The notes under the pieces: model-generated | What the model was told of the DNA's origin: nothing | Database searches by the model: none | The model's input: the letters and a program-made list of their open reading frames with translations, nothing else | Source: Candidatus Spongiisociaceae bacterium | Lineage (GTDB): Bacteria; Actinomycetota; Acidimicrobiia; Spongiisociales; Spongiisociaceae | DNA: 64,000 bases | Direction: 5' to 3' | NCBI GenBank assembly: GCA_965262915.1 | Contig: OZ253564.1 | Coordinates: 960,001-1,024,000 of the forward strand | Program-made: the position numbers and the translations under genes | Shown: in pieces, positions 1,466 to 6,125 of the stretch | Position numbering within the stretch: the stretch's first letter is position 1 | How the letters are laid out: each line of letters starts with the position of its first letter

Positions 1466-2547
1466 TTCGGGGATTCGTTGTAGATAGTTGGTGAGGTTGT
1501 CGAAGATTTGGTCGGCGGTTTTGTGCCAGATGAAGGGTTTGGGGTTTTGGATCCAGTGTTGGGTCCATTCGTTGATGGCGTCGGTGAGTTCGGCTACGGA
1601 TCGGTGGGTGCCTCGGCGTATTTGTTTGGTGGTGAGTTCGGAGAACCGTCGCTCGACGAGGTTCATCCACGAGGCGTAGGTGGGTGTGAAATGGAAACTA
1701 AAGCGGGGGTGGCGTTGCAGCCAGCGCTGTATGGGCTCGGTTTTGTGGGGCGACGCGTTGTCCAACACGACGTGGACGTCTAGTTCGGGGGGGACTTCGC
1801 GGTTGATGAGGTTTAGGAACGTCTGGAATTCTTCGGTGCGGTTGCGTCGTGTCATGGAGGTGATGACCCGGCCGGTGGCGGTGTCGAGCGCGGCCCCGAG
1901 GTTGGTGGTGCCGTACCGGCGGTAGTCGTGGGTGCGCCGCTGGGGGGTCCGGGCAACAGGGGCAGGATCGGTGCGGTGCGGTCGAGGGCCTGTATCTGGG
2001 ATTTGTGGTCCACGCAGAGCACCACCGCCGCGTCCGGAGGGTTCAGGTACAAACCCGCCAGGTCACGGACCTTTTCCACGAACTGCGGATCGGGAGATAT
2101 CTTGAAATCTTCGGTCCGGTGCGGCTTGAGACCGAACGCCCGCCATATCCTTAGGATCGACGACTGGGACAGGCCGACGGCCCTCGCCATGGACCGGGTC
2201 GACCAGTGCGTAGCATCCGCAGGGGTCTCCTCCAGGGTCTTGACCACCACCTCCTCCACCTTGGCGTCGTCTATGAGGCGGGGAGGCCCGGGACGGGGAT
2301 CGTCGTACAGACCGTCGAGACGGCGCTGGGCGAAACGGTTCCGCCACTTGGAAACGGTGTTGGTGCTGCAACCCAGTTCGGTGGCGATGTCGACATTGGC
2401 GCGGTCTTGGGCCGCGCCTAGGACCACACGGCACCGCATCGCCAACCCCTGTGGAGTGGAGGGCCGCCGCGCCCAACGCTCCAGTGTCTCGCGTTCGGTA
2501 GCATCCAAGTCGATAACCACTGCTTTACGACCCCGCCGTTTTTTCAT
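1454..2547 (-). pseudogene. IS630 transposase split by a frameshift near 1942-1948
   Basis: HTH part (THWSTRSMA, VLCVD.KSQIQALDR) in 1852-2547; DDE part (HDYRRYGTT, VVLDNASPHK, FTPTYASWMNLVE) continues in another frame. Confidence 0.85.
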
Positions 2548-2629
2548 CAGCTGTTCCCAATATGGGCTATTACTGAACTACTTACACCATAGCAGAATAA
2601 GTCAAACGATCAAAGAATCAGGACACTAG
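1454..2629 (-). mobile_element. IS630-family insertion sequence
   Basis: Perfect 15-bp terminal inverted repeats CTAGTGTCCTGATTC (1454-1468) / GAATCAGGACACTAG (2615-2629), including the TA target; transposase lies inside. Confidence 0.92.
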
Positions 2630-2679
2630 ATGGTCAGTTCCAAGCGGTTAGTGGTCGGGGGAGCGGGAGGGACCTGCAA

Positions 2680-2694
2680 GAGTCTCCGGGAAAC
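2680..2694. repeat. Left half of an IS3-family (IS6110-like) terminal inverted repeat split by IS110; right half at 4181-4193
   Basis: Joining the flanks gives GAGTCTCCGGGAAACCCGGGGCGGTTCA, compared with the IS6110 end GAGTCTCCGGACATGCCGGGGCGGTTCA (recalled sequence). Confidence 0.7.
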
Positions 2695-2709
2695 CACTCA
2701 TACTTAAGG

Positions 2710-2895
2710 TGACCTCGACCGGGAGGGGCCTGGTCTGACCCACCGGGAAACTGGCGGTTGTGCCTTACCCCGGATCTGTCGGCTGGGCAACGGTGGGGGG
2801 GGAACGGGCAGCCAGCCCGGAGCGGATGTGACCTCATAGGAGCTTTGTTCGTTTCTCCCACACCCTGAGTGGTTTGTCCACCCGCTTCGGACCGG
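2710..2895 (+). ncRNA. Predicted IS110 bridge RNA (ends approximate)
   Basis: Guides CCGGGAAAC (2743-2751), CCCCGGAT (2768-2775), CATAGGAGC (2835-2843) and TGAGTGGTTT (2866-2875) match the element junctions and sit in loops closed by stems (e.g. 2817-2832 with 2876-2890). Confidence 0.75.
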
Positions 2896-2942
2896 CGCTG
2901 CCAGATAAGCCTATCCAACACAAATAGGGGGGCGCAGACAGC

Positions 2943-4174
2943 ATGTCAGGACGAGACCAGGTCGATGTGTATGGCGGGGTTGACACCCATCGGGATACCC
3001 ATGTTGGGGCGGTGGTGGATGCTACCGGTCGCCTGTTGGGGTCGGAGGAGTCGGGGCCGACTCCCCAGGATATGTGCAGTTGGAGAGATGGCTTCGCTCC
3101 TGGGGCCAGGTGGTTCAGGTCGGTGTGGAAGGCACCGGCAGTTACGGCGCCGGCTTGGCCCGTCATCTGACCGCAGCAGGTGTCGAGGTGGTAGAGGTGA
3201 ACCGTCCTAACCGCCAGTTGTGCCGCCTTCGGGGCAAGACCGACACCGTAGACGCCGAAGCCGCTGCCAGAGCTGCTCTTAGCGGAGCGGCCACCGCCCG
3301 GCCCAAAGCTGGGGATGGACCGGTCGAAGGAATAAGGATGCTGCGTGTGGCTCGCCGCTCAGCGGTCAAGGCCCGCACCCAGGCCGCCAACCAGATCCAT
3401 GCTCTAGTGGTAACCGCCCCAGAACAGGTCAAACACCAACTACGGGGCTTCAATCTCCGAACACAGGTCAGAATCTGCGCTCGTTGGCGTCCTGGTGAAA
3501 CACAGACCACCACCGCATACGCCAAGAGGGCACTGCGGCACCTAGCCCGCCGATACCAGACCCTCGACACCGAGATCACACAACTCGACACAGAGATCCG
3601 CCGTCTCTGCGCACGGACCAACCCGGCGCTCCTAGCCGCTACCGGCGTGGGTCCCGACTCCGCTGCCGCGCTGCTGGTGGCCGCCGGTGACAACCCCGGA
3701 CGGATGAACACCGAAGCGTCCTTCGCGGCGCTGTGCGCCCTCAGCCCCGTCCAAGCATCATCGGGACGAACAATTCGCCACCGGCTCAACCGAGGCGGCG
3801 ACCGCCAAGCGAACAACGCGCTATGGCGAATAGCCACCAACCGGATGCGCACCGAACCACGAACCATCGAATACACCCGCAGGCGTCAAGCCGAAGGCAA
3901 AACCCGCCGAGAGATCATCCGCTGCCTCAAACGGCACATCGCACGCGAGATCCACCACCTGCTCACCAACCCAACCCCAACACCGCACGGCAACGATCTA
4001 CGCCTCCAACGTCACCAAGCCCGACAAACCCTCACCGACGTCGCCCAACAACTCCAAGTCCATCCCACCCTCATATCACTACTCGAACGAGGCCTCCACC
4101 ACAACCACCAGCTCGCCACCCGATACCAGCAATGGCTCACCGACACCACGAGAAACCCGATTTGCAAAACATAG
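2943..4174 (+). pseudogene. IS110 recombinase/transposase with C-terminal XRE HTH; 1-nt frameshift near 3051-3056
   Basis: GVDTH, GVEGTGSYG and GKTDTVDA (DEDD); SPVQASSG and RLNRGGDRQAN (Tnp20 domain); N-terminus in ORF 2943-3170, remainder in 3074-4174. Confidence 0.88.
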
Positions 4175-4415
4175 GAGCATCCGGGGCGGTTCACAATAGA
4201 TCGACCACCCCGACCCCACCACTAGCCAATCGAACGTGCCCACCAACACCTCCACCACACGAATCCGCCGCAGGCACACACCAGACCGACATTCGGCCAT
4301 TATCGCTTGACGCTAGACATTCCGCTCTGCGATACTTCATCTGGACGGACACAACAGAGCTAGACACCCAGTCAGCTAGGTAGCGGTTGCGTCGTTTGAT
4401 TAGGAGGTAATCGTT

Positions 4416-6125
4416 ATGCGGGATACGTATATGCGTCGGGCACTGTTTTCTTGGTTGATCGTATTCGCTTTGGTCGTCGTAGCCTGTGGCGGTGACGACG
4501 ACACGCCACAGGCTACGACCCCTGCAGCAACGGCGGCGGTCACGACTGCAGCCGCTCCCAGCGACACATCTGCGCCCGGGACTACTTCCGCCACAGCCGA
4601 CACATCTGCGCCTACTACTGCCCCTGCCACTACTTCTGCAACGGAAACTCCTGAACCTGCAATGTCGGGTGGCACCATAATCATGGCCGAGGTGAAGGCA
4701 CCTGCCACGCTCGATCCGACCCAGACCTCGGAGACCCAGTCCGGGTTTGCCTGGCAACTCTCCTACGAGACCCTGGTTCTGGTCGCAGGGGGCGGGACGA
4801 GGATCGATCCGCTTCTCGCCACCGATTGGACAATCAGCGATGACGGGTTGGTGTACAGCTTCAACCTGCGCGAAGGCGTCACCTTCCACAATGGAGAGCC
4901 GTTCACCGCAGACGATGTCGTGTTTTCGTTCGAGCGGCTCATGAGTGACGGGCTCCCGTTCGCGCAGGCGCTGTTCCCGAATCTCGAATCAGTAGTCGAG
5001 ACGGGCCCGATGTCGGTTGACTTCATTCACTCTGCGCCGGTGGCGAGTTTCCTGCTCCAGCTCGGCGACCCGTTCGTGTTCGGGTCCGGAATCCTGAACC
5101 GGGAGGCGGGCGAAGCCGGGGACCCGAACCTCGAGATGATCGGTACAGGTCCCTTCAAGATGGTTTCCTACGATCCGCTCGACTCGCTGGTCCTCGAGAG
5201 GTACGAGGGCTACTGGGGCGACCCGGCCAAGCCGGACAGCGTCATCATTCGGTACATGCCCGAACGAACCGCGCAGTTGATTGCGTTGGTCGCCGGCGAA
5301 ATCGACATCATGGTGCCGGATGCCGACATCGCGTTGAATCTGGAAGGTCGGGGCGATGTTACGGTTCTACCGCTTCAGGGCTGTGACTACGGCCAGGTCG
5401 ATTTCAATAACGTCGGACCACTGCGCGACGTTCGCGTGCGGAGAGCGATTGCCCTGGCCATCGATCGGCAGGAGATTGCCGAGCAGGCGTATCTGGGCCT
5501 TGCCCAGCCAATGGGCTACACGAGCCCCTGCTTCGGGTGGTCGATCCCCGCTGAGGATCTCCCCTACTACACGCAGGATATCGAGGAAGCCAAGCGACTC
5601 CTCGCAGAAGCGGGATACGCCGACGGTCTGTCGATCAGGTTCAATCACCAGGCAGGCGTGAGCACGTCGAGCGATAGGGCTCAGGAGGTCATGCAGGCTC
5701 AGCTCGCCGAGGTCGGTATCGAAGTCACGATCGAGACGAACGAGTTCGGTGTGTGGCTCGATCAGTATCTGAGTGCCTTGGAGGTGGAAGAAGCGGGCGG
5801 TCCTGCGACCTACGACTTGACGACACTCCACGCCGGATTCCGGAGCAATCCGACGGCCGTGCTTCGCGTCAGAGAGGGACGACACGGCGGCGGCGTGCCC
5901 CCAGGAATCAACGAGCAGTATGCCGCCGCGAATGTCGGTTCGCCGGAGGACTACATCGACAACATCAACGAGCTCGTCCGGCGGCAGGTGGACCAGGTGT
6001 TCCCAGGTTTCAAGACCGTCGCGTTCACGATCTGGGTTGCCTTCCGGAGTGACCAGGTGACGGGGGTGGACATCGACGGCACGCTGAACAGGCGATTCCT
6101 CTTCGACGTAACTGAAGTCGGCTAA
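4416..6125 (+). CDS. ABC transporter substrate-binding lipoprotein (family 5, Opp/Dpp type)
   Basis: Lipobox VVVAC, Thr/Ala linker, LREGVTFHNGEPFTADDV and GTGPFK motifs. Confidence 0.92.
   Translation: MRDTYMRRALFSWLIVFALVVVACGGDDDTPQATTPAATAAVTTAAAPSDTSAPGTTSATADTSAPTTAPATTSATETPEPAMSGGTIIMAEVKAPATLDPTQTSETQSGFAWQLSYETLVLVAGGGTRIDPLLATDWTISDDGLVYSFNLREGVTFHNGEPFTADDVVFSFERLMSDGLPFAQALFPNLESVVETGPMSVDFIHSAPVASFLLQLGDPFVFGSGILNREAGEAGDPNLEMIGTGPFKMVSYDPLDSLVLERYEGYWGDPAKPDSVIIRYMPERTAQLIALVAGEIDIMVPDADIALNLEGRGDVTVLPLQGCDYGQVDFNNVGPLRDVRVRRAIALAIDRQEIAEQAYLGLAQPMGYTSPCFGWSIPAEDLPYYTQDIEEAKRLLAEAGYADGLSIRFNHQAGVSTSSDRAQEVMQAQLAEVGIEVTIETNEFGVWLDQYLSALEVEEAGGPATYDLTTLHAGFRSNPTAVLRVREGRHGGGVPPGINEQYAAANVGSPEDYIDNINELVRRQVDQVFPGFKTVAFTIWVAFRSDQVTGVDIDGTLNRRFLFDVTEVG

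Follow-up and report, generated by a model that had tools for sequence, protein, structure and literature searches.

The stretch of DNA analysed here, called the window throughout, comprises 64,000 nucleotides of a Candidatus Spongiisociaceae bacterium (contig OZ253564.1, positions 960,001 to 1,024,000), with positions counted from its first letter. Near its beginning, positions 2696-4180 of the forward strand, together with one C shared with the target, form what we judge, at a probability of about 0.9, to be an IS110-group insertion sequence (IS), decayed and present as a single copy, with a 247-nt non-coding left end (2696-2942) that encodes a bridge RNA of the IS621 type. This reading is carried by the boundaries of the element, the identity of its target, the covariation of guides with flanking DNA, a conserved scaffold, a recombinase of the IS110 family with aligned catalytic residues, and a frameshift in that recombinase gene, all of which were observed directly.

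Boundaries of the element and the single shared C

The window genome has a size of 5.06 Mb in one contig. A BLAST search of it with the element yielded 44 pieces, from which 31 near-full copies with 72-77% identity were taken; the 13 shorter pieces are outside all copy counts. In 25 of these 31 copies all parts could be parsed, and six (c288897p, c2809606p, c3640148p, c4420331m, c4465635p, and c4175419p) were dropped because the pattern parser did not find the left end or target loop, or the right end. A preliminary description of this DNA had named differing boundaries in other copies as something that would speak against its interpretation. The same termini, C-ACTCATA... on the left and ...TAGGAGCAT-C on the right, are read at all 25 left ends and all 30 right ends parsed from the 31 copies.

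When the two flanks of the window element were joined and searched against the genome, uninterrupted paralogous sites of the form ...TCTCCGGGAAAC-C-CGGGGCGGTTCA were found. There are nine exact unoccupied targets of the window element, eight of which share one repeated context at IS3-family element ends, and unoccupied sites for four further subfamilies (five in all) likewise indicate simple insertion with one shared C. Because the unoccupied sites consist of a left target half (LT), a single C, and a right target half (RT), the element body of 1485 bp (ACTCATA...TAGGAGCAT) is placed at 2696-4180, with the shared core C (crossover position) present on the left at 2695 and on the right at 4181. 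LT (2679-2694) and RT (4182-4193), CGGGGCGGTTCA, correspond to the inner part and the tip, respectively, of a terminal inverted repeat motif of IS3-family type. The target is thus LT-C-RT and the donor junction ...GGAGCAT-C-ACTCATA..., with the C common to both, as the apparent one-nucleotide C core of the preliminary description had it. Two other placements, a core C at 2694/4178 and a dinucleotide core CC, were considered and are excluded by the three Cs that unoccupied sites carry (AAAC-C-CGGGG).

The layout is that of the IS110 group: a long non-coding left end, a short right end reaching 6 nt past the stop codon, no long terminal inverted repeats, and no target duplication. Full-length orthologues of the window element, with 83-85% identity over positions 1-1485 of the element, are present in two genomes of the same genus, and at least two same-genus orthologues have long open frames. 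One further genome gave weak hits only and underlies none of the statements made here. None of the contigs from other sequencing runs joined across 2695/4181, so that neither an empty site nor a circle was seen in them; contigs cannot show rare forms.

Four guides match both junctions and covary with the flanks

The left end contains four segments that correspond to the junctions of the element. The left target guide (LTG, 2743-2751), CCGGGAAAC, equals 2686-2694, the 9 nt left of the core; the right target guide (RTG, 2768-2775), CCCCGGAT, is the reverse complement of 4179-4186; the left donor guide (LDG, 2835-2843), CATAGGAGC, equals 4170-4178, which lie subterminally in the right end; and the right donor guide (RDG, 2866-2875), TGAGTGGTTT, is the reverse complement of 2691-2700. 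All four matches, which the preliminary description had reported at these positions, are exact and none extends further. The arrangement is that of IS621, in which left guides have the sense of the top strand and right guides are reverse complements.

Could such matches be a coincidence, by chance or low complexity, in a GC-rich region? We compared 2000 dinucleotide-preserving shuffles of 2706-2942 with junction windows of 25-30 nt. Since 598 of the 2000 shuffles hold some match of 8 nt or more, a single 8-mer is unremarkable, and this is what can be said for coincidence. The match lengths observed for the four classes, in the order given above, were reached in 38, 7, 75, and 184 of the 2000 shuffles, and the product of these marginal frequencies is about 2e-7 (our own arithmetic, with independence assumed). 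Moreover, the matches abut the junctions and have the order and orientation of the known model, and the same columns change together with the flanks in seven guide sets. A chance origin, already rejected by this covariation, is thus exceedingly improbable.

The covariation was examined in the 25 parsed copies, which carry seven distinct LTG/RTG guide sets. In aligned left ends, the guide segments are the variable columns within an otherwise conserved scaffold. Guides were scored out of 14 by comparing the LTG (9 nt) with the left flank and the five variable RTG bases with the right flank. The seven sets score 14, 14, 14, 14, 14, 14, and 13 against their cognate flanks, whereas the 42 non-cognate pairings of guides and flanks have a mean of 6.3 and a maximum of 10. 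By individual copy, 24 of 25 score at least 12 against their own flanks. The five variable RTG nucleotides covary with the right flank, and the GAT that follows them is invariant in all parsed copies. The same-genus orthologues, which are located in the same IS3-type repeat, have an identical RTG and an identical LTG, except that one LTG differs in its first two bases. Two more distant relatives in other genomes fit the same guide parse, so the covariation that had been proposed as a check is present in the seven guide sets of the window genome and in further sets among relatives.

On the donor side, the donor loop is conserved, as are the element ends that its guides match. The LDG of 8-9 nt is subterminal, and at one position it varies with the right end: the base before TAGGAGC is G in both in two sets and A in both in five sets. 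The RDG consists of 5 nt plus the complement of the core.

Handshake bases, core position, and guide register

The right guides run through the core into the DNA of the non-cognate partner. In the window element, CCCCG of the RTG pairs with 4182-4186, G2773 with the core C, and A2774 and T2775 with the AT at the end of the element (4179-4180). In the RDG, TGAGT pairs with 2696-2700, G2871 with the core C, and GTTT with flank bases 2691-2694, so that all four handshake bases pair with the flank AAAC. In all RTGs five variable bases are followed by GAT; its A and T lie opposite the two terminal bases of the right end, and hence opposite the donor as non-cognate partner, in 7/7 sets. All RDGs read TGAGT-G followed by four bases, the first of which pairs with flank position -1 in five of the seven sets. 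The RDG base adjacent to the core differs in step with the flank, being G opposite C in the window element and T opposite A in the same-genus orthologues. Because the RTG and RDG bases pair with non-cognate DNA in the manner of the published scheme (PMC11208158), the term handshake-like, which the preliminary description had used for the right guides, is appropriate.

In IS621, as described in PMC11208158, a 9-nt LTG pairs with positions 1-9 of the bottom strand, the RTG pairs with positions 8-11 of the top strand and can be extended to 14, the core CT occupies positions 8-9, with the second base nearly invariant and the first less conserved, and two RNA bases after each right guide pair with non-cognate positions 6-7 after top-strand exchange. 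Numbered in this way, the shared C of the present family falls on core position two, the invariant one. At core position one the donor has T and the targets have C, A, or T; no CT dinucleotide is common to donor and target, which share only one C. This looks like a functionally one-base core with a handshake that starts one position earlier.

A possible, though not a probable, alternative is that the IS621-like dinucleotide core is kept, with N-C at positions 8-9, and that the mismatch between donor TC and target CC is resolved after strand exchange or replication, which would leave one base apparently shared. IS621 cores GT, AT, and TT still recombine, and its first core base is the less conserved one (PMC11208158); the invariant base is likewise the second one here, and two guide sets (c642 and c2009) have TC in both target and donor. 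The abundant subfamily, however, keeps the target-type base at all 15-16 left junctions and the donor-type base at all 17 right junctions, and such uniformity speaks against a mismatched dinucleotide core because random resolution of heteroduplexes would not predict it. Furthermore, position 8 faces RNA bases that pair with the non-cognate partner as handshake bases would: the A of GAT pairs with the donor T in all seven sets and the RDG base with flank position -1 in 5/7.

The LTG occurs in two registers. In the window element, the abundant subfamily, and one other set (3/7 sets), it corresponds to flank positions -9 to -1, which we call the offset register; in the other 4/7 sets and in two distant relatives it corresponds to flank positions -8 to -1 plus the C, an IS621-like register. 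The abundant subfamily provides 15 exact left junctions in the offset register, and its one-base-shorter junction was found in none of the 29 family genomes searched. Speculatively, in the offset sets the bottom-strand core G would face the invariant U after the LTG and form a G-U pair. The most successful subfamily, with 15-16 insertions, and the window element both have their LTG in the offset register. From these observations one might suppose that the geometry of this clade is looser than that of IS621, requiring one shared base, with the preceding position used for the handshake, and accepting the LTG in either of two registers, and that co-resident subfamilies may also cross-guide each other's circles; we consider this proposal rather doubtful.

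The guides are embedded in a conserved scaffold

The stems were evaluated in 12 paralogous left ends with RNAalifold, over 23 pairs. The target-binding loop module (2726-2790) has a basal stem of 13 pairs (2726-2739/2778-2790) and a distal stem GGC/GCC (2753-2755/2762-2764), and its internal loop carries the LTG on the 5' side and the RTG on the 3' side. The donor-binding loop module (2824-2879), which contains LDG and RDG, is closed only by a 4-pair stem (2824-2827/2876-2879), with 91.7% of cells paired. The stem-closed loops of the preliminary description correspond to the basal and distal stems for the target loop and to these four pairs for the donor loop. A conserved 3' hairpin, CCG...CGG (2882-2895), follows the donor loop; it is paired in 12/12 sequences and its pairs are invariant. 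Over all 23 pairs and 12 paralogues, 97.1% of the stem cells are paired, compared with 33-50% when the partners are slid.

An extra hairpin that had been proposed between the loops at 2781-2817 was misplaced, as 2781-2788 are part of the basal stem, on its 3' side. The actual linker (2791-2821) can form a weak hairpin only (-9.8 kcal/mol), and the linkers of paralogues are 23-33 nt long and not conserved in sequence. Three subfamilies possess an extra 5' stem-loop that is absent from the others.

The recombinase belongs to the IS110 family

The recombinase gene, on the forward strand, extends from 2943 to 4174 and is a pseudogene, with 36 N-terminal codons (2943-3050) in one frame and the rest in another. 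Several lines of evidence bear out its assignment to an IS110-family element. In the open reading frame (ORF) at 3074-4174, Pfam detects PF01548 (DEDD_Tnp_IS110, 6e-16) and PF02371 (Transposase_20, 5.9e-17), and the same ORF reaches 161.4 bits (cutoff 140) with the NCBIfam model NF033542, 'IS110 family RNA-guided transposase', covering positions 38-341 of the 343 in the profile, compared with 200.1 bits for an intact paralogue. A protein profile built from six paralogues matches the solved IS621 transposase (8wt6) with E=8.6e-13, and the ISCro4 transposase was also matched, whereas a search of the PDB with a single paralogue sequence gave no match at E<=0.001. In the profile alignment, GvDth/vGvEGtG/KtDsvDae/asSG stand opposite GIDT/IEATG/KTDTVDA/YESG of 8wt6, with D, E, D, D, and the Ser aligned; by our own count, the 8wt6 chain numbers are those of the published residues D11/E60/D102/D105/S241 plus 2. 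All five catalytic residues are encoded in the window copy, split by the frameshift.

The recombinases of this family have about 410-425 amino acids, and the 328-residue solved chain of IS621 lacks their C-terminal extension of about 80 amino acids (3990-4170 in the window copy). This extension gives weak signals of an XRE-type helix-turn-helix: HTH_31 with E=7e-4, below the Pfam cutoff, and, with the profile, ClgR and HipB chains with E=0.07-0.8.

A putative circle-junction promoter and the question of an RNA

Joining 4180, the shared C, and 2696 in a circle yields TTGCAA-N17-CATACT just upstream of the RNA, with the -35 box TTGCAA at 4162-4167 and the -10 box CATACT at 2699-2704, both on the forward strand, and this putative promoter would form only on the circle junction. 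This pattern had been noticed in the preliminary description and is correct with the junction as fixed by the empty sites. It is present in 23 of the 25 reconstructed circle junctions, and one subfamily reaches TTGACA-N17-CATAAT. A scan of the integrated context 2550-3000 for promoters and terminators found none, hence no sigma-70-like promoter there.

These data bear on a second explanation, according to which the internal copies of flanks and ends act as DNA, either as protein-binding subterminal repeats or as single-stranded DNA guides as in IS200/IS605. The integrated context, in which no promoter was found, would be in line with it. Against it, the recombinase matches the RNA-guided IS110 family at equivalog level and is homologous to that of IS621, for which RNA guidance has been shown experimentally (PMC11208160), and the guides sit in loops of a conserved stem scaffold. 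Because they covary with a target lying outside the element, the guides are not binding sites for an element-encoded protein. We therefore consider action at the DNA level very unlikely and favor a bridge RNA with target- and donor-binding loops and with guides arranged as in IS621, the interpretation with which the preliminary description had begun.

Observations that weigh against the bridge-RNA reading

Several findings weigh against this reading, the first being the state of the recombinase gene. One base is absent after 3050 in the window copy when compared with 5/5 paralogues, which agrees with the frameshift that the preliminary description had placed at 3051-3056, and the longest ORF of the copy has 366 amino acids, compared with 409-438 in 21 of 25 copies. 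Contigs spanning 2600-3259 from three runs of three different studies have indels at 2656 and 2721 only and none at 3050, so that the frameshift is no assembly error of this genome. With an intact recombinase frame absent, the window copy is a pseudogene that cannot make its own recombinase, and a single frameshifted copy facing eight exact free targets fits an inactive element. Of the decodable RNA-guided recombinase proposed in the preliminary description, the decoding therefore stands and the activity does not.

As regards the RNA, the putative junction promoter of the window element is weak, matching 8 of 12 consensus positions. A single contig from a metatranscriptome library (266 nt, depth 4.55) covers 2680-2885 and continues upstream into an IS3 end; it comes from another copy, in an intact IS3 inverted repeat, and it is no evidence of transcription because it could be DNA or read-through. 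Minimum-free-energy folding of 2695-2942 is no better than that of shuffles (z=-0.21), and folding the window left end with the guides constrained did not yield the canonical donor loop. Compensatory changes occur in only 2/23 stem pairs, which makes the covariation of the stems weak, and support for the scaffold consists of conservation and compatibility more than covariation. Rfam 15 gives no match at E<=1 in 2400-4500, and Rfam may hold no bridge-RNA family.

As regards the guides, 2 nt separate the end of the LDG from the core, subfamilies differ in their LTG register (that of the RTG is the same in all), and one of the 25 copies, c3665111m, has guides that do not match, scoring 6/14 against its own flanks.

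Of the two indels in the contigs from the three public runs, one adds 4 bases after 2656 and the other removes 4 bases at 2721, within the 5' portion of the left end; apart from these, the contigs have 0-1 differences from the window over 2600-3259.

Proposed life cycle

By homology with IS621, the following life cycle can be envisaged. The excised circle would join the right end to the left end and thereby create the sigma-70-like promoter TTGCAA-N17-CATACT, from which the RNA would be transcribed; both this transcription and the binding of the RNA by the recombinase are predicted from IS621. Through its LTG the target loop would pair with the bottom target strand at CCGGGAAAC, and through its RTG with the top target strand at C-CGGGG. 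The donor loop would pair with the circle junction, at ...CATAGGAGC through its LDG and at C-ACTCA through its RDG. A tetramer of the DEDD/Ser recombinase would then exchange strands at the shared C by the chemistry presumed from IS621. After top-strand exchange, AT of the target loop and GTTT of the donor loop would pair with the incoming non-cognate strand in the handshake.

Targets and genomic context

The window element targets an IS3-family element, at the tip of its terminal inverted repeat; the IS3-family element encodes an OrfA with HTH_Tnp_1 and an OrfB with HTH_21 and rve. At the window locus only an IS3 motif of about 31 nt is present, and it adjoins an IS630-like element. Encoded on the reverse strand directly upstream of the target motif (1454-2547) is an IS630-like transposase in two frames, with HTH_32/HTH_29 in its N-terminal part and DDE_3 in its C-terminal part, and the 5' region has about 13 diverged relatives in the genome with about 74% identity.

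A second right junction onto an IS3-type target, ...CATTAGGAGCAT-C-CGGGGCGGTTCA, was observed at ~291500-291650. It belongs to a different, rearranged IS110 relative near c288897p, and an unoccupied variant of the IS3-type site lies about 4.5 kb upstream of it.

For the abundant subfamily, the insertion point is 8 nt away from the end of an element of the ISL3 family (DDE_Tnp_ISL3), for whose ends 16 unoccupied sites, 16 occupied left junctions, and 17 occupied right junctions were counted. This ISL3-family element (L006:202-1497 and 15 other sites) has at least 32 copies, about half of them interrupted by an IS110 relative 8 nt from one end. Two other subfamilies target sites 21 nt apart in one REP-like (repetitive extragenic palindromic) unit. 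The unit, GCGCGAAAA-C-GTGGGTTGGGTGGGGTGAAAT-C-CTTGG..., found at 67880, 689268, and 3670463 and in paralogues, holds the targets of both.

The copy with non-matching guides, c3665111m (~3663681-3665111, locus L012), has the guides of the abundant subfamily and is located at AAAGAACCC-C-ACCGC, a site that resembles the target of another subfamily (LTG AAAGAACAC, RTG pairing with AACGC). Its placement could be due to a co-resident bridge RNA that acted in trans. Half-match recombination (10.64898/2026.08.31.748434) was also considered and set aside, the flanks resembling the donor arms only weakly, by eye.

Comparison with known systems and significance

The family shares with the E. coli element IS621 (8wt6; PMC11208160, PMC11208158), as these sources describe it, a recombinase with a DEDD RuvC-like domain and a Tnp domain with catalytic Ser; an RNA, here predicted, located in a long left end; a first, variable loop with a 9-nt LTG in top-strand sense and a 5-nt RTG as reverse complement; a second, conserved loop matching the element ends; right guides followed by the core complement and handshake bases for non-cognate DNA; a promoter motif rebuilt at the circle junction; and insertion into repeated sequences without duplication. 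It differs in that the similarity of the proteins is seen only by profile and the recombinases here are longer; the invariant core base is C here and T in IS621; one base instead of CT is common to donor and target; the LTG register is offset by one base in three of the seven guide sets; the LDG does not reach the core; the target of the window element is an IS3-family inverted repeat and that of IS621 a REP element; and the window copy is frameshifted.

Homing into the inverted repeats of other transposons occurs in some members of the IS1111 group. The seekRNA-guided IS1111/IS110 elements (ISEc11, IS4321/IS5075-like), as reported in PMC11187229, resemble the present family in an RNA from a non-coding region with short matches to both target strands and in natural re-programming among relatives; architecture, promoter logic, and homing into repeats agree with that account as they do with IS621. 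The IS110 type described there likewise has its non-coding region upstream of the transposase gene, whereas the IS1111 type has the RNA downstream and subterminal inverted repeats. ISPpu9 of Pseudomonas putida (PMC12288879) is similarly a multi-copy IS110-family element in repeated sequences with circular intermediates, and its account differs in REP targets and an associated downstream small RNA.

No new mechanism is described here: the NCBI family model already names the protein RNA-guided, and bridge RNAs have been predicted in 85.7% of IS110-group elements (PMC11208160). The element family, its single-base cores, and its register variants may already be listed in published supplementary tables. 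The value of the system is that of a clean natural data set, with at least seven re-programmed guide sets on a common scaffold in one 5-Mb genome and with both occupied and unoccupied targets available for most of them. Ends of other insertion sequences (of the IS3 and ISL3 families) and a REP-like unit serve as targets, and they are therefore homing sites that are harmless to the host and multiply themselves. The single shared base, the handshake from the first core position, and the one-base LTG offset are of relevance for the rules by which bridge recombinases can be designed. If cross-guiding by co-resident subfamilies with near-identical donor ends does take place, it would explain a copy at the target type of another subfamily, and it would let the frameshifted window element, or its RNA, act in trans.

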